Positions 390 through 47,592 of a DNA stretch of 64,000 bases are shown in pieces. Position 1 is the first letter of the stretch; each line of letters begins with the position of its first letter. The notes under the pieces are model-generated. The model saw only the letters and a list, made by a program, of their open reading frames with translations, did no database searches and had not been told where the DNA came from. Source of the DNA: Bacteroidales bacterium (GTDB lineage: Bacteria; Bacteroidota; Bacteroidia; Bacteroidales; 4484-276). Position numbers and translations under genes: made by a program. The stretch covers positions 8,619 through 72,618 of the forward strand of contig DASRND010000010.1 of NCBI GenBank assembly GCA_035647615.1, read 5' to 3'.

Positions 390-2309
390 TTATTTTAAAG
401 GAAAGATTTTTTCCTGCCGAAGGTAAGTCATGATGCGTTCTACATTTTCATCATCTCGTGGGTCCATAACCAAATGAGCATTTTCAGGGACATTATAATT
501 CGCATCAAGACCGGGCATATTTTCTATCTCCCCCCTGTCGGCTCTTTCCCAGAGTTTGGGTCGGTTTTCACGACCAAAATCCACGTCGGCATCCATGTAC
601 ACCAGATGAAATCTTTCCTGACCAATTATCTTCGCCACCTGCCGGCGAATGTTGTCGTCGGGCGAGATAAACGAGCAGAGTGTGATGATTCCCTGATCGT
701 TGAGCAAACGCGCCACGTGCGCCACGCGCCGCAGATGTTCGGCACGGTCGGAGGGTGAATAGTCGAGTTCGCGGGATAGTCCGGCGCGGATGGTGTTGCC
801 TTCGAGCAGCACCACAATAGCTCCTTCGTCGAAAAGGCGGCGCTCAAGGGTATAGGCAAGCCGGTTTTTGCCGCTGCCATGCAATCCAGTAATCCATACT
901 GTAGCACCTTTCTGATTGTAAAACCGGTCCCGCTCCTGCGAGGTGATGAGACATTCGCCATGCTCAATCTTCTCTATCTCCATGTCGGTGATGCGCAGCG
1001 AATTCTCGTCGGGCTTGCGCGCATCGATAATCATGCCCACGGCGCTGGTATTATTGGTAACAGGATCGATGAGCACAAATGAGCCTGTGCCATGATTCTT
1101 TTTGTAAGCGTCGAAGAACAAAGGCTTCGCGGTGGTGATGGCCACGCGTGCTATCTCATTCAGCGTAAGCTGTGTAGCCGGCGATTTTTCCAGCGTATTC
1201 ACATCGGTTTTGTAACGCACTGCGTCAATGCGGACGCGGGTGGTGGTGGTGGTATGTTTGATATAATATTGTGTGGCGGTGTCGAGCGGCTTCTCATCCA
1301 TCCATACCAGCATGGCTTCCTGGTGACGACCAATGAGTGGCAGATTGTCGGTATGCACAAGCATCTCGCCGCGTGAGATGTCTATTTCATCGGCGAGGGT
1401 CAGTGTAACCGACTGTGGTGGGAAAGCCATCTCCGGCTCACCGTCGTAGGTAACGATACGTTCCACCGTGCTGGTCTGCCGCGAGGGCAAGGCCATCACT
1501 GTGTCGCCTTTGCGCACGATACCGGAGGTAATACGTCCGGCAAATCCACGGAAAGTGAGCGTAGGGCGGTTTACGTATTGAACCGGCAACCTCAGGTCGC
1601 TGAAGTTGCGGTCGCTGCCAACATGTACCGTTTCAAGAAATTCGAGCAGACTTTTGCCATGATACCATGGCATCTTGTCGGTGATGTCCACCACGTTGTC
1701 GCCTTTAAGTGCCGATAGCGGGATAAAGTTTATATCGGGAATGTCGAGGCCGGTGATGAAGTTGCGGTAGTCGTTGCAGATGTTCTCAAACACCTCCTCG
1801 CTGTAGTCTGTCAGATCCATCTTATTAACCGCCAGCACCACGTGTTTTATCCCAAGAAGCGAGACGATAAAAGTATGCCGCCGCGTTTGCGTGATCACAC
1901 CTTTGCGTGCATCTATCAGGATGATGGCCAGGTTGGCGGTAGAGGCACCTGTAACCATGTTGCGGGTGTACTGCTCGTGGCCGGGTGTGTCGGCGATAAT
2001 AAACTTGCGCTTGTTGGTCGAGAAATAGCGATACGCCACGTCGATGGTAATGCCTTGTTCGCGTTCGGCTTTGAGACCGTCGAGCAACAGAGCGTAGTCG
2101 ATGTCGTCGCCGGCATGGCCGATGCGTTTGCTGTCGCGCTCCAGGGCCTGTAGATGATCTTCATAAAGCCGCTTGCTGTCGAAGAGCAACCGACCAATTA
2201 AAGTGCTTTTACCGTCATCAACCGAACCTGCCGTAAGAATACGCAGTAGATCCTTGTTTTGATCCTGATCGAGAAAGGCTTTGATATCAAGAGAGTGAGT
2301 TTGCTTCAT
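390..2309 (-). CDS. cysNC: sulfate adenylyltransferase subunit 1 (CysN GTPase) fused to a C-terminal APS-kinase-like domain
   Basis: ORF 390..2345. GTPase motifs [17 protein letters not shown] and NKMD are present. The C-terminal ~190 aa resemble APS kinase (FISP motif) but have altered catalytic motifs. Start placed at the MKQTHSL ATG (2309), because the upstream ORF extension lies in GC-rich repeat DNA. Confidence 0.9.
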
Positions 2310-2334
2310 GTTTTGAGAGTTTGTATTTGAAGTT

Positions 2335-2358
2335 GCATGGCGCATGGCGCATGGCGCG
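2335..2358. repeat. tandem heptamer GCATGGC x3 (member of the GC-rich GCGCC/GGCGC word family)
   Basis: Reads gcatggc gcatggc gcatggc gcg, 26 nt upstream of the cysNC start on the coding strand. Confidence 0.7.
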
Positions 2359-2374
2359 TGTTACGTAGCACAGA

Positions 2375-2440
2375 TTAGCTCATAGCTGAGCCATTTAAAT
2401 GCTTTGCAAATTAGTATTTCTTATTTTCGATAAAAGATCA
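2375..2440 (-). pseudogene. stump of a second four-helix-bundle gene (codons ~25-52 only, in-frame stops)
   Basis: Minus-strand ...gaaaataagaaatactaatttgcaaagcatttaaatggctcagctatgagctaa parallels the intact copy gaaaagaagaaatacaaatttgctgagcagttaaatgcggcagccatgagtatt (2750-2810) and the decayed copy at 6520-6560. Confidence 0.55.
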
Positions 2441-2525
2441 GTATGATTAAAAAACTAATAACTGTTAGCTTGCGACTCTTTGTATCATGCTCTATGCGCC
2501 AAGTGCCATGCTATCCAATCAAAAA

Positions 2526-2897
2526 TTATTTATCAATTGTTTTGAGGAGGGTTTTTCTGAAATTGGAAATCATGCTGCTTAGATGATTCAATTTTTCGAA
2601 ATGCTCCTCCTTAACTTCTTTGGGAATGTATCCTCTCATTAAAGTTATGGCGATAATATTGGCACATTCAAATGTTGATCGCCTTGCAATATTCAAAAAA
2701 TTAGCAAAATCCTTATCAGAATAAGAGCCGGAACCTTCGGCAATGTTATTCGTAATACTCATGGCTGCCGCATTTAACTGCTCAGCAAATTTGTATTTCT
2801 TCTTTTCGGTTAAAAGATCGGCAAGGTCGAAAAGCTGATTTGAAATTTCGCTGGCAAATTTCCATATTTCCAGTTGTTCAAATCTAAATCTTATCAT
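2526..2897 (-). CDS. four-helix-bundle protein (23S rRNA intervening-sequence protein / DGR Avd-like family)
   Basis: 123-aa ORF MIRFRFEQLEIWKFASEISNQLFDL...NNIAEGSGSYSDKDFANFLNIARRSTFECANII. The family is recognised from the F.FE.L.VW... start and the twin AEG / ARRS..E helices. Confidence 0.8.
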   Translation of the reverse strand: MIRFRFEQLEIWKFASEISNQLFDLADLLTEKKKYKFAEQLNAAAMSITNNIAEGSGSYSDKDFANFLNIARRSTFECANIIAITLMRGYIPKEVKEEHFEKLNHLSSMISNFRKTLLKTIDK

Positions 2898-3001
2898 AGG
2901 GATATTTGTATTTTATACATTCTTTTATCTTTTGTAAAACCAATGACGCACCTGCCGTTCCTTGCTCTAATTGTATTGCTCTACACACCCTGGGTCTTGT
3001 T

Positions 3002-3028
3002 CCAAGCTCTCCGCGCCTTGCGCCCTGC
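3002..3028. repeat. GC-rich word repeat (ccaagctctccgcgccttgcgccctgc) abutting the cysD stop codon
   Basis: On the minus strand this is gcagggcgcaaggcgcggagagcttgg. The same string recurs at 6686-6781 and similar strings at 6411-6460, 36503-36551 and 54874-54908. Confidence 0.7.
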
Positions 3029-3936
3029 TAAAAATATCCTTCCCTCTTCTTTTGCTCCATGCTGCCGTCCTGGTCGAAGTCGATGACGCGGGTGGTGCGT
3101 TCGCTTACGGTGGTGGTCATCATCTCTTCGACGATCTTTTCGATGGTGTCGGCTTCCGACTCGATGGCGCCGGTGAGCGGGTAGCATCCGAGGGTGCGAA
3201 AGCGTACCATCTTCATCTCTGCCTTAGCAGCAAGTTCGGGCGGCATGCGGTCGTCGTCCACGAGCACCCAGGCATCGTTGTATTTCACCACAGGCCGCTT
3301 TTTAGCATAGTAAAGGGGCACGATGGGAATTTTCTCCAGCCGGATGTATTGCCAGATGTCGAGTTCTGTCCAGTTGGAGAGCGGGAATACACGTATCGAC
3401 TCGCCTTTGTGAATGCGGGTATTGTAGATATTCCAAAGCTCCGGTCGCTGGCTTTTGGGCTCCCACTGGTGATACTGATCGCGGAAGCTAAAGATACGTT
3501 CTTTGGCGCGCGACTTCTCCTCATCGCGACGGGCGCCACCAAATGCTGCATCGAAACCATATTTGGTAAGTCCTTCCAGCAGCGCCTCTGTCTTCATAAT
3601 ATCGGTGTGTACCTTGCTGCCATGAGTAAAAGGTCCTACCCCACTCTCGAAAGCGGCTTTGTTGTAATGCACGATCAGATCCCAGCCTTTCTCGAGCGTG
3701 TAGTTCTCGCGAAAGGTGATCATCTCCGAAAACTTCCATTTGGAATCGATGTGCATCAATGGGAAAGGCACCTTGCCGGGATAGAAAGCTTTCTCAGCCA
3801 GACGCACCATCACGGAGGAGTCCTTGCCAATAGAATAAAGCATTACCGGGTTTTGAAATTCGGCAGCCACCTCGCGGATGATGTGGATGGCTTCCGCTTC
3901 GAGTTCCTGCAGGTGTGTTAGTTTATATCCGTTCAT
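3028..3936 (-). CDS. cysD: sulfate adenylyltransferase subunit 2
   Basis: 302-aa ORF with a PAPS-reductase-fold N-terminus ([11 protein letters not shown]) and C-terminal ...[17 protein letters not shown], typical of CysD. Overlaps cysC by 14 nt. Confidence 0.95.
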
Positions 3937-36551: not shown

Positions 36552-37571
36552 TTATCCGCTGAACTTTTCCCCGTCGAGTTGGCCAAAGGTTTTAACACCT
36601 TTTACATAATGATCCATTGCAATGTTGCCTTGGTAGATCATGCTTACGTGGCGCTGCTCTATCAACCGACGTTTCCTTTTACTGATTTTGTATTTGTAAT
36701 AAAAACCCATGTGCGCCCGTGTCACAGCAACAAAGTGCCGGAAGCCACCGTCGAAAAGAAATTTAATGGCTGCTGCCACATCGAGGAAAAAACGCATGAA
36801 AAACACCTGATACAACTGGTTGGCCGGGAGGTTTTTGTAGAGCATTATGTTGTTGTTGCGGATGTTGAGATAGGTCTTGCGTGGCGAGGATTTGTCGAGC
36901 GAGCCACCGCCGATATGATACACCTCCGACTTGCCGCAATACATTATTTTATAGCCAAGCTGCTTGAGCCGCCAACAAATATCGATTTCTTCCATGTGGG
37001 CAAAGAAGTCCTTGTCGAGGCCGCCCACCTGATGATACAGGCTGGCGCGGATAAACATGCAAGCACCCGTAGCCCAAAAAACTTCACTGATGTCGTTGTA
37101 TTGCCCCTCATCCGTTTCGATAGACTGAAAGACGCGGCCACGACAAAACGGATAGCCATAACGGTCGATAAATCCGCCACCGGCACCTGCGTATTCAAAA
37201 ACGCTACGGTCGTCGAAAGAAAGGATTTTTGGCTGGCAGGCAGCAATGTTTTCATCGCTATCCATCAGCGCAATTACCGGCTGTAGCCAAGTTTGAGGAA
37301 CTTCGATATCGCTGTTGAGCAAAACATAATATTCCGAATCCACCTGTCGCAGCGCTGCATTGTAGCCTTCGGCAAATCCAAAATTTTCGGTGTTGAGGAT
37401 AAGTCTTACCTGCGGAAAATTGTTTTTGAGAAATTCCACCGAATCATCTGTGGAAGCATTGTCTGCAACAATTACGTCGGCTACGTCCCGGCAGCTATCG
37501 ATAACGCCTGGCAGGAACCGCTCCAGAAAATGGCGCCCGTTCCAGTTAAGTATTACTACGGCAATTTTCAT
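36552..37571 (-). CDS. family 2 glycosyltransferase
   Basis: 339 aa. MKIAVVILNWNGRHFLERFLP...VADNASTDDS...NSDIEV. GT-A fold with DxD-type motifs. Confidence 0.85.
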   Translation of the reverse strand: MKIAVVILNWNGRHFLERFLPGVIDSCRDVADVIVADNASTDDSVEFLKNNFPQVRLILNTENFGFAEGYNAALRQVDSEYYVLLNSDIEVPQTWLQPVIALMDSDENIAACQPKILSFDDRSVFEYAGAGGGFIDRYGYPFCRGRVFQSIETDEGQYNDISEVFWATGACMFIRASLYHQVGGLDKDFFAHMEEIDICWRLKQLGYKIMYCGKSEVYHIGGGSLDKSSPRKTYLNIRNNNIMLYKNLPANQLYQVFFMRFFLDVAAAIKFLFDGGFRHFVAVTRAHMGFYYKYKISKRKRRLIEQRHVSMIYQGNIAMDHYVKGVKTFGQLDGEKFSG

Positions 37572-37632: not shown

Positions 37633-39165
37633 TTATCTGGGATTGTTGTACAAGTCGCCCGACTTGCCGCCGTATTTGTCGCCGTCAGGATTGATGCCGC
37701 CCTGCTGAAAACGGTTGTGCAGCTCGGCCTGCCAATTTTCGTTGCTTATCTCGCCGGGCATGTTGCTGTGTATTAATTTATAATTGTTGAGGGCGATATG
37801 AATGTTGGCAAACACAAACTTGCGGTTGCGCTGGTTGTCGATGGTATAATAATGCCAGATTTGATAAGGCACCGAGCCGGCGTCGTAGCCCTGCTCGCCA
37901 CCATCATTGATGGTCATGCCGCTGGTGCTGGCTGCAAAAGGCTGGTCGCTGATGGTGTTAGGCGGGCCGTACTTCAGGAAGATGCGACCCATATCGGTTC
38001 TATAACCCCTCTGCCCCTTCGAGCCGGGAGCGCCAAACTGATCATTCACAAGATCTACAGCGCTCAGATAATTGCGCCAGGCATATTCAGGATCTCCTTC
38101 GTTGCGGTCGAGCCAAAAATTAAAAAAGAAGCTCTGCATCATCTGTAGGTCGGCGTCACCTTTTTGTATCTGATAGGTGATAAACCTAAGCTCCACATCG
38201 GTGGCTACCGGAATCAGATAATCGATATAGTGCCGCAGCGTGTCTTTGCTGGTGATACGCGAAACGAACGAATTCTGCGCAGAAGCAGCGGCATAGTCAG
38301 CAAAGTCGATGGCCACAGCCGGATTGCTGCGTTGGAAAAACAGACGATTTTCAGCAATCACCTCATTTTCGCGGTTGCGCACCTCCACCACCAGATTGTA
38401 ATTTCCGGAGGCAAGATGCGTAATGTCGAAATTAGCGAAAATGATATTGACCGCTTTCGCTGATTCACGCTTAAACCGTGCAAATTTGTTGAGCTTTTTC
38501 CCGGTCTCGTAGGACTCCAAAAAATAATTTATTAAAAATGGCTCGCTTTCGCCAAATTGCTTTGTGGCATTGTAAATTTCAGAATAAAAAGTAAGCGTGG
38601 TTACCTTCTCGGGAAGGAAATTGTAAACGTAAGGCACCAGGTCATAGCCGCTTTTGCTGAGGATATTTTCTGTGGTAGTAGCCTCGTAAGATTCCACCAA
38701 CTGTATTCCTGAAACCGATGCTTCATCGGGTGGGAAGTTTATCTCAATGGTTTGCGTGGTAGCGTATGGAGGCATCTCGCTGCCCGGGTCGTTTATGGTG
38801 ATCTGAAAATCGTACACGCCGTTGGGAAGGCTAAAACGCTGTTGATCCAGAAAGTTAAAATCGATGTGGGAAGTATCCTTCACTACCGGACTAAGCAGCT
38901 CGTATTTATCATAATTTACCACCGCGCTGTCTTTGGTAAAGATCATGGAAACTTCTATTTTTCCCTGAAAGCCACCTTCGGGTAGCGGCTGGTAATTAAC
39001 GGTATTGCCCACCACCGAAAGATAAGTTTCCAGATAAGGCCCGTCGACAGGCGAATAAAATTTAGAATAAAAAAGCTGTGCCTGAACGTATCTGTCATTC
39101 TGTGCCATTGTAACATGAACAGACAAAACAAAAACTGTAAGCAGAAACAAATATCTTTTTAGCAT
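37633..39165 (-). CDS. GWxTD-domain protein, secreted
   Basis: Signal peptide MLKRYLFLLTVFVLSVHVTMAQ. C-terminal GYRTDMGRIFLKYGPPNTI...YQIWHY matches the GWxTD domain signature (Y in place of W). Start moved to 39165. Confidence 0.65.
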   Translation of the reverse strand: MLKRYLFLLTVFVLSVHVTMAQNDRYVQAQLFYSKFYSPVDGPYLETYLSVVGNTVNYQPLPEGGFQGKIEVSMIFTKDSAVVNYDKYELLSPVVKDTSHIDFNFLDQQRFSLPNGVYDFQITINDPGSEMPPYATTQTIEINFPPDEASVSGIQLVESYEATTTENILSKSGYDLVPYVYNFLPEKVTTLTFYSEIYNATKQFGESEPFLINYFLESYETGKKLNKFARFKRESAKAVNIIFANFDITHLASGNYNLVVEVRNRENEVIAENRLFFQRSNPAVAIDFADYAAASAQNSFVSRITSKDTLRHYIDYLIPVATDVELRFITYQIQKGDADLQMMQSFFFNFWLDRNEGDPEYAWRNYLSAVDLVNDQFGAPGSKGQRGYRTDMGRIFLKYGPPNTISDQPFAASTSGMTINDGGEQGYDAGSVPYQIWHYYTIDNQRNRKFVFANIHIALNNYKLIHSNMPGEISNENWQAELHNRFQQGGINPDGDKYGGKSGDLYNNPR

Positions 39166-39271
39166 AATAGTAGGTTTTCGTAACATCAAGACCAAAAGTA
39201 TTTTAATGACTCCCCACCACAGTTAATTAATAAGTATTTGGCTCTAAATGTTCAGTTTACGGTGTGGAAAT

Positions 39272-40204: not shown

Positions 40205-41062
40205 ATGCCAGAAGTTGATTCGACAAAGAAAACCAAAGGAGTGCTTCATCCGCGCAAGCCACAGCCGGCAGCGGGGCCTCGCAACTACCGGCAATATCTG
40301 ATCCGTCTGCGACGGCAAATGATCCGCAGCGCGGTGGTGATCATGCTCCTGGCAGTGGTAGCTTTTATGAACCGCAGCCTTATCTTCGACCACATCCTGC
40401 TGGCACCCAAAAATCCCGACTTTTTCACTAACGTGCTGTTTTGTAAAATAGGCACAAAGTTCAACATCCCCGATTTATGTTTTGATGCTTCGGCACTCAA
40501 GATTATCAATGTGAACATGGCCGGGCAGTTTCTCACTCATTTGTATGTTTCCATAGTTGCCGGCGTAGTGGTAGCGTTTCCTTATCTGCTTTACGAAATT
40601 TGGTCGTTTCTCTCTTTTGTACTTAGCATCAAAAGCCGGCGCGCCACGCTGGTCATTATGATAGTGGGTACTCTTTTATTTGTCGCGGGACTGCTGTTCA
40701 GTTATTACCTCATCGTTCCGCTCACCGTTAACTTCCTAGGAACCTATTTCGTGAGCGGGCAGGTGGCCAACCACGTGATGCTTGGCAGCTACATCGGCAC
40801 CGTTGCCTCACTATGCCTGGGGGTGGCGGTCTTTTTCGAGTTACCAATCTTCATTTTCTTTCTGGCGCGCTACGGCATTGTGGGGCCAAAAATGCTTGCA
40901 AAACAGCGGCGCATCATGGTCGTGGTGATCCTGATTGTTTCGACCATCATCACCCCACCCGACGTCATCAGCCAGATTATGGTGGGCATCCCGCTGTTGG
41001 TGCTTTACGAAATCAGCATCGTGGTGGCGCGCAGCGTTTGGCGGAAGCCGGCAGAGTCGTAG
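40205..41062 (+). CDS. tatC: TatC-like twin-arginine translocase subunit (atypical cytoplasmic motifs)
   Basis: 285 aa, six TM helices. Collinear by eye with E. coli TatC (..LAP.., PYLLYEIW, LFSYYLIVPL, FELPIFIFFLA, IITPPDVISQ). Confidence 0.75.
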   Translation: MPEVDSTKKTKGVLHPRKPQPAAGPRNYRQYLIRLRRQMIRSAVVIMLLAVVAFMNRSLIFDHILLAPKNPDFFTNVLFCKIGTKFNIPDLCFDASALKIINVNMAGQFLTHLYVSIVAGVVVAFPYLLYEIWSFLSFVLSIKSRRATLVIMIVGTLLFVAGLLFSYYLIVPLTVNFLGTYFVSGQVANHVMLGSYIGTVASLCLGVAVFFELPIFIFFLARYGIVGPKMLAKQRRIMVVVILIVSTIITPPDVISQIMVGIPLLVLYEISIVVARSVWRKPAES

Positions 41063-41189: not shown

Positions 41190-41230
41190 GGAGGGCTTAG
41201 TCGGCGGCTGCGTCGCCGACTAAGCCCTCC
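41190..41230. repeat. perfect 17-bp hairpin (ggagggcttagtcggcg-gctgcgt-cgccgactaagccctcc) without a U-tract
   Basis: Direct reading. Followed by the word gtcattctgaacgaaacgcagtggagtgaagaatc (41248..41283). Confidence 0.7.
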
Positions 41231-41288
41231 CAAGAACCCTAACAACCTGTCATTCTGAACGAAACGCAGTGGAGTGAAGAATCTATTT

Positions 41289-42194
41289 ATGAAAAATGAT
41301 GTTTACCGGACAACAATGAATATCAAAAAAAATAAAGTGAAAGTACACCTCCCCAAACATCTGAAGACAGCGCTCAAGATCATCCTATCTTTGGGCATCC
41401 TGGCTTTTGTACTTTACAAAATCGATACAGGGGCGCTGTTGGAAGTTTTTGCACGGGTACAGCCGCTGTGGCTTTTGATGGCGCTGCTATTTTTTGCTTT
41501 ATCAAAATACATTTCAGCTTTTCGCTTACGCAGATTCCTACACAACACCGGCATCGACATTAGCGCCAGCTTCAATCTGAAACTCTACCTGCTGGGCATG
41601 TTTTACAATTTGTTTCTGCCCGGCGGCATCGGTGGCGACGGCTACAAAATCTATCTGCTCAACAAACGATACGACGTAAAAGCGCGGAACATCTTCTGGG
41701 CTATCCTGCTCGACCGCGTCATGGGGTTGCTGGCGCTGTTTTGTCTGGCTGCTGCCCTGGCCACCGCCGCTACCCTCCCCCACTTTTACAAAACCTACTC
41801 CTGGCTGCTCATCCCGCTGGCCATCATCGCTTTTTATTTTTTTATAAAAATCTTATTCGATCGTTACCGCGACATTTTTACCATTACGTTGCTGCAATCC
41901 TTTCTGGTTCAGCTTTCGCAAATGGTTTCGGCATTTTTTATCCTGCAGGCAATCGGCGTAAGCGATGCCACAATCGATTATCTGTTTATATTTCTGATCT
42001 CCTCCATTGTGGCGGCGTTGCCCATCACGATAGGTGGCGTTGGCTCGCGCGAAATCACTTTCCTGCTGGGGGCGCAGGTGATGCAACTCAGCACCAGCAA
42101 CAGCATTGCGCTAAGCTTGTTGTTTTATATCATCACCGCCCTGGTGTCGCTCACCGGAATTTATTACAGTATCAAAACCGAAAAATTAAAATAA
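41289..42194 (+). CDS. UPF0104 / lysyl-PG-synthase-TM-like (flippase-like) membrane protein
   Basis: ISAFRLRRFL..., FYNLFLPGGIGGDGYKIYLL, LPITIGGVGSREITFLLG. Start uncertain (41274 GTG lies in a repeat; ATGs at 41289 and 41316). Confidence 0.7.
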   Translation: MKNDVYRTTMNIKKNKVKVHLPKHLKTALKIILSLGILAFVLYKIDTGALLEVFARVQPLWLLMALLFFALSKYISAFRLRRFLHNTGIDISASFNLKLYLLGMFYNLFLPGGIGGDGYKIYLLNKRYDVKARNIFWAILLDRVMGLLALFCLAAALATAATLPHFYKTYSWLLIPLAIIAFYFFIKILFDRYRDIFTITLLQSFLVQLSQMVSAFFILQAIGVSDATIDYLFIFLISSIVAALPITIGGVGSREITFLLGAQVMQLSTSNSIALSLLFYIITALVSLTGIYYSIKTEKLK

Positions 42195-42210
42195 TTGGCT
42201 CTTTGGGATC

Positions 42211-43806
42211 ATGATTAAAACTTTGCAAAAATATCCGCTCATTCTCTACGCCACCGGTGGTATTCTGTTGATAATTGCGCTGCTGATCAACCTAGGCAGG
42301 ATTAACATTTTTATGGCTGTGGATGAAGCTACGCGCGGACTGGTGGCGCTCGAGATGATGATTTCGGGCAACTACGTTACGCCCACCATTTACGGCGACT
42401 TTTACTACAACAAGCCGCCACTCTTCCCATGGATTTTGGTTGTGTTTTTCAAACTTTTTGGTATGAGCGAAATGGTGCTGCGCCTGCCCACCGTGCTGTC
42501 GCTCATTGGCTTTGGTTTTACCATTTATTATTTCGTCTCACGCGAAATGGGCAAACAAGCGGGCATCATCACCGCTTTCCTGTTTGTCACTTTGGGGCGA
42601 TTGCTGTTTTGGGAATCGCTGCTCGGCTACATCGACACCACTTTTTCGTGGGTAATCTACACCATGCTGATGGTGGTGATTTATCATTTCCGGCGAAAGC
42701 AATATCTGCAACTCTTCCTTCTCTCCTACCTGCTGATGACGGTTGGTTATATGCTCAAAGGCTTGCCAGCCATCGTTTTTCAGGGCATCACGCTACTGGT
42801 GGTTTTCATCTCCGAAAAGGAATGGCGCCGGCTTTTCAATTGGCAGCATGTGGCAGGAGCAGGCGTTTTTGTGGTGCTGGCGGGAGGTTATTATCTGATG
42901 TATCATCATTACAATTCGCTGCAAAATGTTTTCGCCACTTTGTGGAGCGAATCGACCAACCGCACGGTGGCCACACAAGGTGTGAGCCTCACATTGCAGC
43001 ATTTGTACAAGTTTCCGGTGGAGATGCTCTACCATTATCTGCCCTGGACGCTGCTGCTGGTTTTTACGCTGGTGCGCGGATTTTGGAAAAAGGTTTTTCA
43101 AAATGGTTTCCTCAAACTAAGCCTGCTGGTGCTGCTTTTCAACCTCATCCCCTACTGGACGTCGCCGGATGTTTACCCCAAATACATCATGATGCTGGTA
43201 CCTCTGGCACTGTCGGTTTTTGTATTTTTTTATTTAGAAAACAAAAAACAAAACAAACGACTTTCCTCAATAATGGAATGGGTCTTTTTTGGCGCTGGAA
43301 TTCTGCTAACCATAGGCTACCTGGCGCTTCCGCTGATACCACAATTTGCCGACACGCCCGCCGCCAAAACCGTTGCCACCATTCTATTTGTGCTCTCGGC
43401 AATTTTGATGTATTTCTATTTCTACCTTCGCGACAAACGATTGATTATTTTTGCCATCGTGCTCATCGTGGGGCGCATTGCTTTTGGCTGGTATGTGTGG
43501 CCGCTAAGGGCTGAGCAGTTTGAAGTTTACGAAGAAGATGCCATCGAAGTGGCACAGATTACTGCCGATGAGCCTTTGCTTTATTATCACGCGCCCATGT
43601 TGCAATATGGAGCCACTTACGTGATGACGCGTGAAAAGCAGCAACTGATCCGGCAGGAGAAGCAGGAGCCGAAACCGGGAGTGTTTTACATCACCGACGA
43701 CAACGGGCTGGCGCTAATCCGGCAAGAAAACCAAGTGGAAATATTTTATCAATATCCCAATGTGGAGGATGGCAGAAATCTGAATTTGATAAAGATCATG
43801 AAATGA
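42211..43806 (+). CDS. ArnT/PMT-like polyprenyl-phosphate-sugar-dependent glycosyltransferase (GT39/GT83 type)
   Basis: 531 aa, polytopic. VDEATRGLVALEMMISGNYVTPTIYGDFYYNKPPLFPW matches the DE..R...KPPL periplasmic-loop signature. Confidence 0.8.
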   Translation: MIKTLQKYPLILYATGGILLIIALLINLGRINIFMAVDEATRGLVALEMMISGNYVTPTIYGDFYYNKPPLFPWILVVFFKLFGMSEMVLRLPTVLSLIGFGFTIYYFVSREMGKQAGIITAFLFVTLGRLLFWESLLGYIDTTFSWVIYTMLMVVIYHFRRKQYLQLFLLSYLLMTVGYMLKGLPAIVFQGITLLVVFISEKEWRRLFNWQHVAGAGVFVVLAGGYYLMYHHYNSLQNVFATLWSESTNRTVATQGVSLTLQHLYKFPVEMLYHYLPWTLLLVFTLVRGFWKKVFQNGFLKLSLLVLLFNLIPYWTSPDVYPKYIMMLVPLALSVFVFFYLENKKQNKRLSSIMEWVFFGAGILLTIGYLALPLIPQFADTPAAKTVATILFVLSAILMYFYFYLRDKRLIIFAIVLIVGRIAFGWYVWPLRAEQFEVYEEDAIEVAQITADEPLLYYHAPMLQYGATYVMTREKQQLIRQEKQEPKPGVFYITDDNGLALIRQENQVEIFYQYPNVEDGRNLNLIKIMK

Positions 43807-44771
43807 AAAAAACGAAAATATCCATCATTGCGCCGCTTTATAACGAACAGGAAAATGTGGGGCAGCTCGCCGCCGAAATCATCGGAGTGATGTCGGCAAC
43901 AGCCTACAATTACGAGGTGATCCTTGTAAACGACGGCAGTAGCGACGCCACCTGGCAGCGCATTGCTGATTTGCAGCAGTCGCATCCACAAATTACGGGT
44001 ATCGATCTGGCAGGAAACTATGGCCAGACCATCGCACTTCGCAGCGGTTTCGAAAATTCTACCGGCGATATCATCATTTTTATGGATGGCGATCTGCAAC
44101 ACAACCCGGCAGACCTGCCACGGTTCATTGCGAAAATAGAAGAAGGCTTTGATATGGTGGGCGGTGCCAAAGTAAAACGCCCGGAGAACTGGTTCAAGAG
44201 CAGCTTATCACGATTTGCGCACTGGCTCATCCACCGCATCTCCGGCGCCGACATGACCTACTTCGGCGCCACCTTCCGCGCCTACCGCCGATACCTGCTC
44301 GAAGAGTCGAACATGATTGGCGACGCACATCGCTTTCTGGGCGCTATCCTGGCGCGAAAAGGCATCCGCCAAACCGAAATCCCTATCGAAATACGACAGC
44401 GGGTAGCCGGCACCAGCAGCTATTCGCTCAAGAAAGTTTATCTGGTGATCATAGATTTGATATTTCTAAAATTCACCATCTCCTACATGAACAAGCCCTT
44501 CAGACTCTTTGGCGTCACCGGTGGACTGATGTTCATCGTCGGACTACTGCCCACGGTGTACCTCGTCATCGGCTCACTGTTTTTCCATTTCCACCTGCGC
44601 ATAGATTATCTGGTGGAGTTTCTGTTTTCGATCTTCGTCATGATCATGGGAATGTTGCTGGTGAGTTTTGGGCTTATTGCCGAAATTGGCATCTATAACT
44701 ACTATGCCCGTGGCAACCACAGCCCTTACAGCGTCCGGCGCATCATAAGGGAAAATCATAAAAAACAATAA
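43803..44771 (+). CDS. GT2 polyprenyl-phosphate hexose/HexNAc synthase (ArnC/GtrB/FlmF-like)
   Basis: ISIIAPLYNEQENV..., VNDGSSDAT, FMDGDLQHNP, plus two C-terminal TM helices. The start overlaps the upstream stop (ATGA). Confidence 0.85.
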   Translation: MKKTKISIIAPLYNEQENVGQLAAEIIGVMSATAYNYEVILVNDGSSDATWQRIADLQQSHPQITGIDLAGNYGQTIALRSGFENSTGDIIIFMDGDLQHNPADLPRFIAKIEEGFDMVGGAKVKRPENWFKSSLSRFAHWLIHRISGADMTYFGATFRAYRRYLLEESNMIGDAHRFLGAILARKGIRQTEIPIEIRQRVAGTSSYSLKKVYLVIIDLIFLKFTISYMNKPFRLFGVTGGLMFIVGLLPTVYLVIGSLFFHFHLRIDYLVEFLFSIFVMIMGMLLVSFGLIAEIGIYNYYARGNHSPYSVRRIIRENHKKQ

Positions 44772-44870
44772 AGCAAACCACAAATAAGCCTCAACATCAA
44801 TATTCAATAACCAAACCCGTCACGAATTTTTCCATTTTGATTTTCGGTTTTTAATTAAAAAGAAATAAGA

Positions 44871-45674
44871 ATGACTGATAAACGCCTGATCATAAATGCA
44901 GACGATTTTGGATGGGATGAAGCAGCCACAGCCGGAATCGCGCATTTACTCGAAAAAGGGAAGATCAGCAGCACCACCATTTTGGCCAACTTCGCCACCG
45001 AAAACGATCTTGAAAAGGTACGTTCCATCGACGGAATCAGCACCGGCCTTCACATCAATTTGATCAATGGCAAGCCGGTGAGCCGACCGGAAGAGGTGGA
45101 TACTTTACTCGATGCTGAAGGTAAGTTTTTGGGTGCTGGAAAATTGTACAAAAGGTTTTTGATGCGAAGGATAAATAAAGATCATATTGTGAAAGAGGTA
45201 GCGGCGCAAATCAAAAGCTTGCGCGAAAATGGTATCGACATCTCACACGCCGACAGCCACCAGCACCTGCATCAATTCCCCGGATTGGGAAAATGGATAT
45301 TGCAGGCGGTGGCCGACAATGGAATCAAAAAAGTAAGAAACTGTCGTTTGACTCGTATTCATGCAGGACGCAGTGTAGTGATCGCACTATTTGCAGCAAC
45401 AACATCACGCAATTTAAAACCTTTCCAACACCCGGATGCGCTGATAGCTGAGCTATCTTTTGGCAGCGATTATTCGGACGACTTTGCAAATCAACTACTG
45501 TCGTCCCATTTCCGCAAAGGTGATGTGTTCGAAATAATGACCCATCCGGCTACAGCCGACAAAACAGATTCGTACCTGCATCGCAAAGCAGAATTTGACT
45601 TTTGGGACACGCTACCGTTGAAAGAAATTTTGAGCGGGAATAAAATCAATATGATAAACTATCGCGAACTTTAG
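44871..45674 (+). CDS. YdjC/ChbG/HpnK/NaxD-family carbohydrate deacetylase
   Basis: MTDKRLIINADDFGWDEAATAGI...HADSHQHLH. Family-defining DDFG and H.H motifs. Confidence 0.8.
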   Translation: MTDKRLIINADDFGWDEAATAGIAHLLEKGKISSTTILANFATENDLEKVRSIDGISTGLHINLINGKPVSRPEEVDTLLDAEGKFLGAGKLYKRFLMRRINKDHIVKEVAAQIKSLRENGIDISHADSHQHLHQFPGLGKWILQAVADNGIKKVRNCRLTRIHAGRSVVIALFAATTSRNLKPFQHPDALIAELSFGSDYSDDFANQLLSSHFRKGDVFEIMTHPATADKTDSYLHRKAEFDFWDTLPLKEILSGNKINMINYREL

Positions 45675-45744
45675 TTCTTTGAAGAGAAAAACCTCCTGAA
45701 TGTTATTTTTAATTAAAAACATCCCCGCCGGCAACGGGTTTTCT

Positions 45745-45849: not shown

Positions 45850-47592
45850 ATGGATAAAAAGCAAATCGACCCAAAGATTATCGAAAGAGCCAACGTGTGG
45901 CTCACCAAGGATTACGACGCCGAAACCCGCGCTGCCGTGCAACGAATGATGGATGAGAATCCCGACGAACTCACCGAATCGTTTTATCAGGATCTGGAAT
46001 TTGGCACCGGCGGCCTGCGCGGACTAATCGGCAGTGGCACCAACCGGATGAATAAATATACGGTAGGAGCCGCCACACAAGGGCTGGCCAACTATTTGAA
46101 AAAGGTTTATCCGAAAGAAAAACAACTTCGCGCTGCTATCTCATTCGACCCACGCAACAAAAGCGATTACTTCGCACAAACTACCGCCGACGTTTTCTCA
46201 GCCAACGGTTTCACGGTGTATCTGTTCGACGCGCTGCGCCCCACCCCGGAGCTTTCGTTTACCATACGCCATCTCAACTGCCACACCGGTGTGATGATTA
46301 CTGCCTCGCACAACCCCAAAGAATACAACGGCTACAAAGCCTACTGGAACGACGGTGCGCAAATGATCCCACCGCACGACAAAAACGTGATCGATGAGGT
46401 AAAGAAAATACAAGTTAAGGATGTGAAATTTAAAGGCATCCCCGAAAATATACACATCATTGGCGAAGAGATAGACCGGCTCTATCTGGATGAAGTAGAA
46501 AAACTCTCGCTCTCGCCCACTTCTAATCACCGGCAGGCGGAGCTTCCATTGGTTTACACACCGCTTCACGGCACCGGCGTTAATCTGGTTCCGGCTGCGC
46601 TGGCGCGATTTGGCTTCGAAAATGTTTTTAAAGTGCATCAGCAGGATGTGGTGGATGGCAATTTCCCAACCATAGTTTCACCTAACCCCGAAGAGCCGGC
46701 AGCGCTGGCCATGGCACTCGACAAAGCACGCAAAGTAGATGCGGAGCTGGTGATGGCCACCGATCCCGACGCCGACCGTGTAGGGATAGCTGTGAAAGAT
46801 CTCCACGAAAATTACGTCTTGCTCAATGGCAACCAAACCGCCACTCTGCTTACCTGGTACCTGCTCACCATGTGGGAACGCAAAGAGATGCTCACAGGCA
46901 AAGAATACATCGTGAAAACCGTTGTCACCACCGAACTCATCAGCGACATAGCCAGAAAACACAAGGTAGAATGTTATGATGTGCTGACAGGTTTTAAATG
47001 GATTGCGGAAGTTATTCGTGAAAACGAAGGCAATAAAACCTTCATTGGCGGTGGCGAAGAAAGTTACGGATACATGATCGGCGACTTTGTGCGCGACAAA
47101 GATGCTGTTGCCTCCTGTGCCATGCTCGCCGAACTGGCTGCCTGGGCTGCAAACCAGCGCAAAAACATCTTCGGTCTGCTGCTCGACATCTACATCGAAT
47201 ATGGTTTTTATAAAGAAAATCTTCTGTCTGTGACCAAAAAAGGCAAAGCCGGCGCCGAGGAGATTCGCAAGATGATGGAGAATTTCAGAACCAAACCGCC
47301 CAAAACCATCAATGGCTCGGAGGTGGTGATGATAAAGGATTATCAGGAGCAAGTGCAAAAAGACCTGAAAAACGCAAAAGAAACCGCCATCAAATTACCC
47401 AAAAGCAACGTATTGCAGTTTTTTACTGCCGACGGCACCAAGATAAGCATGCGGCCATCGGGCACCGAACCCAAGATAAAATTCTATTTTGGCGTAAAAG
47501 GCGAACTAAAATCTGCCGCCGACTACGACAAAGTTAATGAGGCGCTCGACAAAAAGATTGATGCCGTAATCAGCGACATGAAACTGAAATAA
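45850..47592 (+). CDS. phospho-sugar mutase (phosphoglucomutase/phosphomannomutase family)
   Basis: 580 aa. Active-site TASHNPKEYNGYK, metal loop ATDPDADR, GGEESYG sugar-binding loop. Confidence 0.9.
   Translation: MDKKQIDPKIIERANVWLTKDYDAETRAAVQRMMDENPDELTESFYQDLEFGTGGLRGLIGSGTNRMNKYTVGAATQGLANYLKKVYPKEKQLRAAISFDPRNKSDYFAQTTADVFSANGFTVYLFDALRPTPELSFTIRHLNCHTGVMITASHNPKEYNGYKAYWNDGAQMIPPHDKNVIDEVKKIQVKDVKFKGIPENIHIIGEEIDRLYLDEVEKLSLSPTSNHRQAELPLVYTPLHGTGVNLVPAALARFGFENVFKVHQQDVVDGNFPTIVSPNPEEPAALAMALDKARKVDAELVMATDPDADRVGIAVKDLHENYVLLNGNQTATLLTWYLLTMWERKEMLTGKEYIVKTVVTTELISDIARKHKVECYDVLTGFKWIAEVIRENEGNKTFIGGGEESYGYMIGDFVRDKDAVASCAMLAELAAWAANQRKNIFGLLLDIYIEYGFYKENLLSVTKKGKAGAEEIRKMMENFRTKPPKTINGSEVVMIKDYQEQVQKDLKNAKETAIKLPKSNVLQFFTADGTKISMRPSGTEPKIKFYFGVKGELKSAADYDKVNEALDKKIDAVISDMKLK

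Follow-up and report, generated by a model that had tools for sequence, protein, structure and literature searches.

A four-gene module of Bacteroidota predicted to modify the cell envelope with hexosamine, with a UPF0104 protein as its candidate flippase

Introduction

Four consecutive genes on the + strand of an uncultured Bacteroidales/Lentimicrobiaceae bacterium, at 41274-45674 of the 64,000-nucleotide stretch of contig DASRND010000010.1 that was analysed as a whole (the window), encode a polytopic UPF0104 membrane protein, an ArnT-like glycosyltransferase of the GT-C class, a GT2 glycosyltransferase of the type that acts on polyprenyl phosphates and a metal-dependent N-deacetylase of the YdjC family (Table 1). 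The locus raises the question of what these four proteins do together and touches a wider one, namely which proteins flip polyprenyl-phosphate monosaccharides. Cationic sugars on lipid A are a main route to resistance to polymyxin and antimicrobial peptides and alter recognition by TLR4; in Bacteroidota, to our knowledge, only the dephosphorylation of lipid A by LpxF is well known. The original prediction, made from the letters of the DNA, read the cluster as a lipid A hexosamine pathway of the kind known from Francisella and Bordetella, with a candidate flippase added. The four consecutive same-strand open reading frames (ORFs) that it described are present, its four family assignments agree with Pfam and NCBIfam matches that are all well above chance level, and the motifs that it quoted, as well as the GT2 start that overlaps the upstream stop, are found in the translations and in the sequence. 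The module is most likely the Bacteroidota version of a known antibiotic-resistance pathway, with a different candidate flippase. We found no description of this four-gene module in the open-access literature searched.

The proposal starts from the family and fold of the four proteins, their conserved catalytic and undecaprenyl phosphate (Und-P)-binding residues and the co-inheritance of the four genes, all of which are observed. The operon is rather likely to direct a hexosamine modification of the envelope in the periplasm, as a system of GT2, flippase and GT-C to which a deacetylase has been added. The ArnC-type GT2 would place an N-acetylhexosamine (HexNAc) from UDP-HexNAc onto Und-P at the cytoplasmic face of the membrane, and the cytoplasmic YdjC protein would then deacetylate the product to the cationic Und-P-hexosamine (Und-P-HexN), the step of NaxD and LgmC. 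The UPF0104 protein would carry the lipid-linked sugar to the periplasmic leaflet, and the ArnT-like GT-C would pass the hexosamine (HexN) to an acceptor, likeliest lipid A, on a phosphate, or the innermost region of the lipopolysaccharide (LPS), where it would reduce negative surface charge. In this scheme we infer what the substrates are, whether the sugar is glucosamine (GlcN) or galactosamine (GalN), that UPF0104 flips the lipid-linked sugar and which acceptor receives it.

Co-inheritance of the four genes

A scan with the YdjC protein, limited to one genome per species, returned 38 loci that were screened by tblastn and hidden Markov models (HMMs), and two further loci (L039 and L045) were added. 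With the loci cut by contig ends set aside, 19 YdjC-type loci are informative, the 16 complete ones together with L008, L013 and L039, and all four genes lie together within about 4 kb in 16 of the 19. The complete loci come from Lentimicrobiaceae, Sporocytophaga, Cytophaga, Hymenobacter, other Cytophagales and unclassified Bacteroidota. Four more loci, although cut by contig ends, are consistent with the module, and cultured carriers include Hymenobacter (for example H. negativus and H. terricola), Cytophaga aurantiaca DSM 3654 and Algoriphagus aestuarii. The genes are found in five arrangements (Table 1) and, when the neighbouring ORFs were clustered, only the UPF0104, GT-C, GT2 and YdjC families recurred across lineages. 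In all the YdjC-type loci recovered from Bacteroidota, YdjC is directly downstream of GT2, and UPF0104 mostly adjoins GT-C, not GT2, in these modules. Co-inheritance of this kind, maintained across rearrangements, is strong evidence that the four genes form a functional unit, and the co-occurrence that the original prediction had proposed to check is borne out by the 16 loci.

Homolog searches with YdjC and with GT-C returned almost only Bacteroidota proteins. The YdjC loci outside Bacteroidota (L022-L038) have no module-type GT2, GT-C or UPF0104 nearby and were for this reason rejected as Lgm-like systems. In Cupriavidus respiraculi (L033, 6773-13111), the one of these loci that was inspected closely, the YdjC homolog is located amid several GT4 and GT2 genes, a polysaccharide-type context. 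A metagenomic contig of unknown phylum (L040, 6001-10434) encodes a YdjC protein, a PgfS/ArnC-like GT2, a GalE-like epimerase and an ArnT-like GT-C, which reaches 152 bits against the ArnT model, but no UPF0104, and this layout is nearer to the three-gene layout of the Francisella type.

Synthesis of the lipid-linked hexosamine

The GT2 protein matches PF00535 (3.9e-31), has the DGSSD and DGDLQH motifs and consists of a GT-A domain followed by two C-terminal transmembrane (TM) helices (residues 242-260 and 274-292). The NCBIfam ArnC model aligns with it from end to end, and its relatives in the PDB, ArnC (9hwj, 6.7e-47, residues 5-320), GtrB (5ekp) and the Dol-P-Man synthase DPMS (5mlz), are all polyprenyl-phosphate glycosyltransferases. 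Residues D44..D48 and D95-G-D97 (the DXD motif) are conserved in 20 orthologs. In a rough neighbour-joining tree, the GT2s linked to YdjC form a separate clade, which is also set apart by HMM score (about 540 versus about 240). The enzyme is presumed to be an Und-P-HexNAc synthase.

The YdjC protein matches PF04794 (9.6e-46) and, in the PDB, EF_3048 (2i5i, 1.8e-15) and ChbG (7vi8, 2e-11). Its translation includes the motifs INADDFG and HADSHQHLH, and among 40 homologs H61, H126, D128, H130, H132 and H134 are invariant, with D11 and D12 nearly so. The protein has no hydrophobic or TM segment and no signal-like N-terminus, and is therefore assigned to the cytoplasm, where it would turn Und-P-HexNAc into Und-P-HexN. 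That GT2 and YdjC together make Und-P-HexN is the part of the pathway we hold to be quite probable. An NAD-dependent 4-epimerase (TviC/WbpP/GalE-like) is encoded within or next to four YdjC-type modules (L007, L009, L011 and L047; Table 1), as also in the L040 set, and hints at N-acetylgalactosamine and GalN as the sugar in these cases. The window module lacks a 4-epimerase gene, and so its sugar could be GlcN or GalN.

The UPF0104 protein and its partnership with GT2

The UPF0104 protein matches PF03706 (LPG_synthase_TM, 1.2e-35) and the TIGR00374 flippase-like domain, and COG0392 is named 'predicted membrane flippase'. It has 5530 close relatives at E <1e-3, versus 164 for YdjC and 266 for GT-C. 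Neither by sequence nor by profile is there a match to it in the PDB; its AlphaFold model (predicted local distance difference test, pLDDT, 83) has MprF structures as all six of its top Foldseek matches in the PDB (TM score 0.61-0.66, probability 1.00), after which the next match falls to 0.16. The homology to the lipid-flipping part of MprF that had been proposed is therefore upheld by the transmembrane fold. The NCBIfam MprF model aligns to the protein at positions 13-278 of 841, PF03706 is its only Pfam domain and the C-terminal aminoacyl-phosphatidylglycerol synthase domain was not found in it. The protein was rejected as an MprF, as it has only 306 aa and the synthase domain is absent. 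The ORF opens at a GTG (41274), and 41289, the start given in the original prediction, is an in-frame ATG. As most homologs have 285 aa, a start at an ATG near 41316 is also possible; residues 1-25 have a pLDDT <50 and the true start is possibly at one or the other of these two ATGs.

This protein is the sole candidate within the module for the flipping step; flippases of the alternative GtrA, SMR and MATE families were found in none of the conserved modules. We somewhat favour it as the flippase of the Und-P-linked sugar. As a proposal the role is not new. It was predicted in 2015 by Makarova et al. from archaeal gene neighbourhoods and AglD fusions, because UPF0104 is coupled to GT2 and GT-C in archaea (PMC5898192), it has been proposed for the UPF0104 proteins HexF (PMC10128005) and GpgF (PMC12713373) as flippases of amino-glycolipids, and it is generalised in the PplT preprint. 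The flippase of the original prediction thus stands as the only candidate in the module, with an MprF fold, but not as a novel idea.

A metagenome scan seeded with the UPF0104 alignment yielded 80 Bacteroidota loci. Of the 61 that have >1 kb of upstream sequence, 56 have an ArnC-like GT2 gene directly upstream of UPF0104, on the same strand and usually overlapping it. Where 3 kb is available on either side (36 loci), 26 have a GT-C gene no more than 3.5 kb away. YdjC occurs in 1 of the 80. Given the frequency of this adjacency, UPF0104 is a regular partner of ArnC-like GT2s in Bacteroidota and, with YdjC at a single locus, it is not specifically an amino-sugar flippase; the suggested specificity for a deacetylated amino sugar did not hold. 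The YdjC-containing module is a minority variant of GT2-UPF0104 units. Relatives about 55% identical are found in three contexts, as GT-C, GT2 and UPF0104 with a GalE-like epimerase and no YdjC (L044), as the four-gene set of the window (L045) and as GT2 and UPF0104 alone (L046). At the first of these, in Lentimicrobium, a 620-aa membrane protein of the sulfatase superfamily (LtaS/OpgB/YejM-like; 1442-3304, - strand) is encoded divergently from the module and may be another envelope-modifying enzyme.

The near-obligate coupling of UPF0104 to ArnC-like GT2s is the strongest comparative evidence gathered here for the flipping of bacterial polyprenyl-phosphate monosaccharides by an MprF-related family. 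If the assignment is true, UPF0104 would be a fourth flippase family beside GtrA, SMR/ArnEF and MATE.

The GT-C transferase and its acceptor

The GT-C protein matches PF13231 (PMT_2, 7.8e-12), has the motifs DE..R (D38, E39, R42) and KPPL (K68-L71), and is built of a 13-helix-type TM domain and a small C-terminal periplasmic domain. ArnT (5ezm) is its sole sequence match in the PDB (7e-08 with the single sequence and 9e-22 with the family profile, residues 16-477), and the model (pLDDT 93.6) is closest in fold to ArnT (5f15, TM score 0.68), followed by ALG12 (0.51) and PglB (0.47). Residues D38/E39, K68, D142 and K183 are invariant and R251 and Y325 nearly invariant. In the profile alignment they correspond to ArnT D55/E56, K85, D158, K203, R270 and Y345, of which R270, aligned with R251, is presumably a phosphate ligand. 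K85 and Y345 of ArnT contact the phosphate of the carrier lipid, and D55/E56, D158 and K203 contact the sugar or the acceptor (PMC7801869). Profile, fold and conserved residues thus agree in making the predicted ArnT/PMT-type polytopic enzyme an ArnT-like GT-C, which would move the sugar from Und-P-sugar to an acceptor at the periplasmic face. Identification as a PMT protein O-mannosyltransferase (GT39) was rejected, as only PMT_2 is matched, there is no MIR domain, and PMT1/2 is not among the PDB sequence matches or the top fold matches. In a rough neighbour-joining tree the GT-Cs linked to YdjC form no single clade and are interleaved with those of modules that have no YdjC.

A PAP2 phosphatase gene (PF01569, 189-209 aa), immediately upstream of the GT-C gene and abutting or overlapping it, is present in 30 of 81 YdjC-less loci, in two lineage groups of such modules (examples in Table 1), and in none of the 25 YdjC-type loci. 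The combination of a PAP2 phosphatase with an ArnT-like GT-C is that of lipid A dephosphorylation followed by glycosylation, as carried out by LpxE/LpxF and the Rgt enzymes in Rhizobium. By this analogy, PAP2 beside GT-C in the sister modules would point to lipid A-type acceptors, and we infer from the same comparison that the PAP2-less YdjC-type modules would be compatible with HexN being attached to a phosphate, as it is in Francisella and Bordetella. Lipid A is the acceptor that we consider likeliest, with a confidence that falls a little short of even. Monophosphoryl lipid A with galacturonic acid (GalA) has been described in Echinicola, in a paper that mentions no glycosyltransferase (PMC8707317), and with mannose (Man) at 4' in Cellulophaga (PMC11065906), with no genes assigned in either case. 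The YdjC-less PAP2 modules could be candidates for the genes behind these Man and GalA decorations.

The module and its commoner YdjC-less relatives provide candidates for donor synthase, deacetylase, flippase and transferase, and the module is an entry point to the widespread, uncharacterised GT2-UPF0104-GT-C modules of Bacteroidota, with or without PAP2. A bolder reading, which we hold to be somewhat less likely than not, is that UPF0104 proteins are the dedicated Und-P-monosaccharide flippases of three-component systems in Bacteroidota, that the YdjC version puts a cationic hexosamine on lipid A and that the PAP2-bearing sisters explain the Man and GalA decorations. If true, this would be the first amino-sugar modification of lipid A described in Bacteroidota.

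Comparison with known systems

FlmF2, NaxD and FlmK of Francisella and LgmA, LgmC and LgmB of Bordetella belong to the same three enzyme families as the GT2, YdjC and GT-C proteins of the module, a likeness at the family level, and the logic of a cationic sugar donor on Und-P is the same. These systems decorate a phosphate of lipid A with GalN or GlcN; the role of the NaxD deacetylase has been described (PMC11279074), as has LgmABC, with LgmD reported not to be essential (PMC4993483). The module differs in being from another phylum, in the additional conserved UPF0104 protein and in having no regulator and no virulence context. The reading by analogy with Flm/NaxD and Lgm is therefore retained for the three enzymes, which fit the logic of the pathway, and not for an amino-sugar-specific flippase or for the membership of a downstream mutase gene.

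In the Arn system of E. coli and Salmonella, the GT2 and GT-C of the module have their nearest solved structures, ArnC and ArnT, and the steps follow the same order. The donor is assembled on Und-P, its sugar is unmasked on the cytoplasmic side and, after flipping, transfer takes place in the periplasm. In Arn, however, unmasking is by the CE4-type deformylase ArnD, where the module has YdjC, and the flippase is the SMR-like ArnE/F, where the module has UPF0104. No protein of the ArnA, ArnB, ArnD or ArnE/F families is encoded in the window cluster, the scores on the ArnT model (42.7 bits versus a cut-off of 567) and on the ArnC model (175 versus 529) are below those of equivalogs, and the module was on these grounds rejected as an Arn (4-amino-4-deoxy-L-arabinose, Ara4N) pathway.

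The three-component systems GtrA/GtrB/GtrC, CsbB/GtcA/YfhO and that of Citrobacter GT136 combine a synthase, a putative flippase and a GT-C, as does the module (PMC11127046). The candidate flippases listed in reviews are GtrA, SMR and MATE, and UPF0104 is not among them (PMC11127046); the module differs from these systems in having a UPF0104 candidate of MprF fold and an added deacetylase. In HexSDF of C. difficile and GpgSDF of P. aeruginosa, the gene of a UPF0104 'MprF-like flippase' accompanies those of a glycosyltransferase and an N-deacetylase, which produce a cationic amino sugar on a lipid (PMC10128005, PMC12713373). UPF0104 is the only component that these share with the module, as their glycosyltransferases are of GT28 or GT4 type and act on the final lipid, their deacetylases are of CE4/COG3233 type and there is no GT-C. 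They glycosylate a membrane lipid that is the end product, whereas in the module the lipid is a carrier from which the sugar is passed on. In archaea, AglD is a GT2-UPF0104 fusion, mirrored by the adjacency of the two genes in Bacteroidota, and arCOG00899 neighbourhoods also contain PMT/STT3-like GT-Cs (PMC5898192). The AglD contexts are those of archaeal N-glycosylation and have no YdjC, and the Bacteroidota genes are separate but overlapping.

Alternative explanations

A number of observations weigh against the proposed pathway and are considered here together with the alternatives. The ArnC and ArnT scores are so far under the equivalog cut-offs that orthology gives no basis for assigning substrates. 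The ArnT zinc ligands E84, H265 and H267 are not conserved in the GT-C family, and close relatives of the GT-C also pair with a different GT2 subfamily, with no YdjC, so that the GT-C clade is not restricted to a single sugar. The PAP2 argument draws on more distant GT-C clades, and no HexN-modified lipid A is reported for Bacteroidota in the open-access literature searched. In L008, L013 and L039 some flanking sequence is present with no adjacent UPF0104 and GT-C.

The same donor pathway might serve an acceptor other than lipid A. In a Gtr-like or PMT-like decoration, the sugar could go to the LPS core, the O-antigen or a different surface polysaccharide, or to a protein of the periplasm or outer membrane, either directly or on its O-glycan. 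Enzymes of the GT-C/PMT_2 type serve many classes of acceptor, and the low ArnT score and the absent zinc site also speak for this reading. Bacteroidota have a general O-glycosylation for which the core flippase and transferases are unknown, with glycans that rarely carry amino groups (PMC12871550), and O-antigens are commonly decorated by three-component systems (PMC11127046). We nevertheless regard this alternative as unlikely, as ArnT is the only solved sequence relative and the best fold of the GT-C, with neither PMT1/2 nor a MIR domain in evidence, the sister modules pair GT-C with PAP2, which suits a phospholipid-type acceptor, and the module is not located within O-antigen, capsule or LFG-type loci.

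The UPF0104 protein might have a role other than flipping of the donor. It could be an obligatory partner or activator of GT2 (compare GacJ for GacI), or return free Und-P to the cytoplasmic leaflet, with Und-P-HexN flipped by an unlinked protein or spontaneously. The tight overlap of GT2 and UPF0104 genes is equally expected of a physical complex, and L040 has the three enzymes with no UPF0104. Mutants in hexF and gpgF still produce their lipids (PMC10128005, PMC12713373), and flippase activity has never been shown directly, in any assay, for stand-alone UPF0104 proteins, HexF and GpgF included. On the other side, the fold matches only the lipid-translocating domain of MprF, the adjacency to GT-C more than to GT2 in YdjC-type modules suits a protein that acts after the donor is made and before it is used, and Und-P recycling has already been assigned to proteins of the DedA and DUF368 families (PMC9881974). 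Taken together, a role of UPF0104 other than flipping the donor seems distinctly unlikely.

A third possibility is that GT2, YdjC and UPF0104 form a synthase-deacetylase-flippase set that makes a terminal cationic amino-glycolipid, with the GT-C functionally unrelated to it. Glucosaminyl-hopanoid, made by HpnI/K, is one such lipid, and the YdjC protein reaches 102 bits against the HpnK model. Modules of this type use a UPF0104 protein and have as their known products GlcN-phosphatidylglycerol (GpgSDF, PMC12713373) and HNHDRG (HexSDF, PMC10128005). We consider this explanation improbable; the GT2 is over its full length of the ArnC/GtrB/DPMS type, not GT4 or GT28, GT-C is present in 16 of the 19 informative loci and mostly adjoins UPF0104, and a GT-C requires a polyprenyl-phosphate donor, which is the type of product made by this GT2 family. 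The HpnI/K/L reading of the hopanoid pathway was itself rejected, as no HpnI or HpnL model is matched and a GT-C is present. That YdjC is a catabolic, ChbG-like chitobiose deacetylase located by chance beside glycosyltransferase genes, to which a ChbG-model score of 104 bits and the automatic annotation of homologs as 'chitin disaccharide deacetylase' would lend themselves, is very improbable and was rejected on gene context; that score is under the cut-off of 227, there are no chb/PTS or chitinase neighbours and the GT2-YdjC adjacency is invariant over distant Bacteroidota despite the rearrangements.

Gene organization and flanking features

Within the module, a 16-bp gap separates the UPF0104 and GT-C genes, the ATG of GT2 overlaps the TGA of GT-C by 4 bp (ATGA) and a 99-bp gap separates GT2 and YdjC, a spacing that suggests that the four genes are one transcription unit. 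The short hairpin downstream of YdjC (Table 1) is, from its sequence, likely to be the end of this unit, and the inverted repeat upstream of UPF0104 is likely a terminator or boundary upstream of the operon. A scan for sigma-70 promoters gave results at or below the expectation from shuffled sequence, with promoter models that do not cover Bacteroidota promoters.

Table 1. Positions of the module genes, associated features and gene arrangements; positions are those of the window unless a locus is named
Feature	Position	Strand	Remarks
UPF0104 / MprF-flippase-domain-like polytopic membrane protein	41274..42194	+	306 aa, GTG start
ArnT-like GT-C glycosyltransferase	42211..43806	+	531 aa
ArnC/GtrB/DPM1-type GT2 polyprenyl-phosphate glycosyltransferase	43803..44771	+	322 aa
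YdjC-family (ChbG/HpnK/NaxD-type) metal-dependent N-deacetylase	44871..45674	+	267 aa
Perfect inverted repeat (17 nt) in the tatC-UPF0104 intergenic region	41190..41230	.	arms 41190-41206 and 41214-41230, 100% complementary
Short GC-rich hairpin between YdjC and the mutase gene	45724..45738	.	T/A runs on either side; terminator-like site
4-epimerase genes	L009 9740-10699; L011 9727-10686; L007 8286-8663; L047 6451-7434		
PAP2 / GT2-UPF0104 example loci	L082 4880-8873; L089 7103-11139		from L047-L126
Arrangement 1 of five			UPF-GTC-GT2-YdjC
Arrangement 2 of five			GT2-YdjC-GTC-UPF
Arrangement 3 of five			GT2-YdjC-UPF-(epimerase)-GTC
Arrangement 4 of five			GTC-UPF-GT2-YdjC
Arrangement 5 of five			GT2-YdjC convergent with UPF-GTC

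The module is flanked upstream by tatC (40205-41062) and downstream by a gene for a mutase of the PGM/PMM family (45850-47592). The mutase gene does follow the cluster, as the original prediction stated, but is separated from YdjC by the hairpin and shares synteny with the module in none but the closest relatives (L001-L003; the module of L001 is 81-96% identical to that of the window), and was therefore rejected as a member of the module. In the lineage of the window this mutase could supply hexosamine-1-phosphate; its best match, to the GlmM model of archaeal type, has 167 bits and is under the cut-off. Conservation of tatC beside the module is likewise limited to the closest relatives. Further upstream, on the opposite strand, are genes for a soluble GT2 glycosyltransferase (36552-37571, -) and a 520-aa GWxTD-domain protein (37633-39195, -) that are not conserved beside the module in other lineages. 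The 17-nt inverted repeat, located 3' of tatC, is GC-rich, with the arms GGAGGGCTTAGTCGGCG and CGCCGACTAAGCCCTCC, and is followed at 41231-41275 by TGTCATTCTGAACGAAACGCAGTGGAGTGAAGAATC, which resembles a dispersed intergenic repeat.

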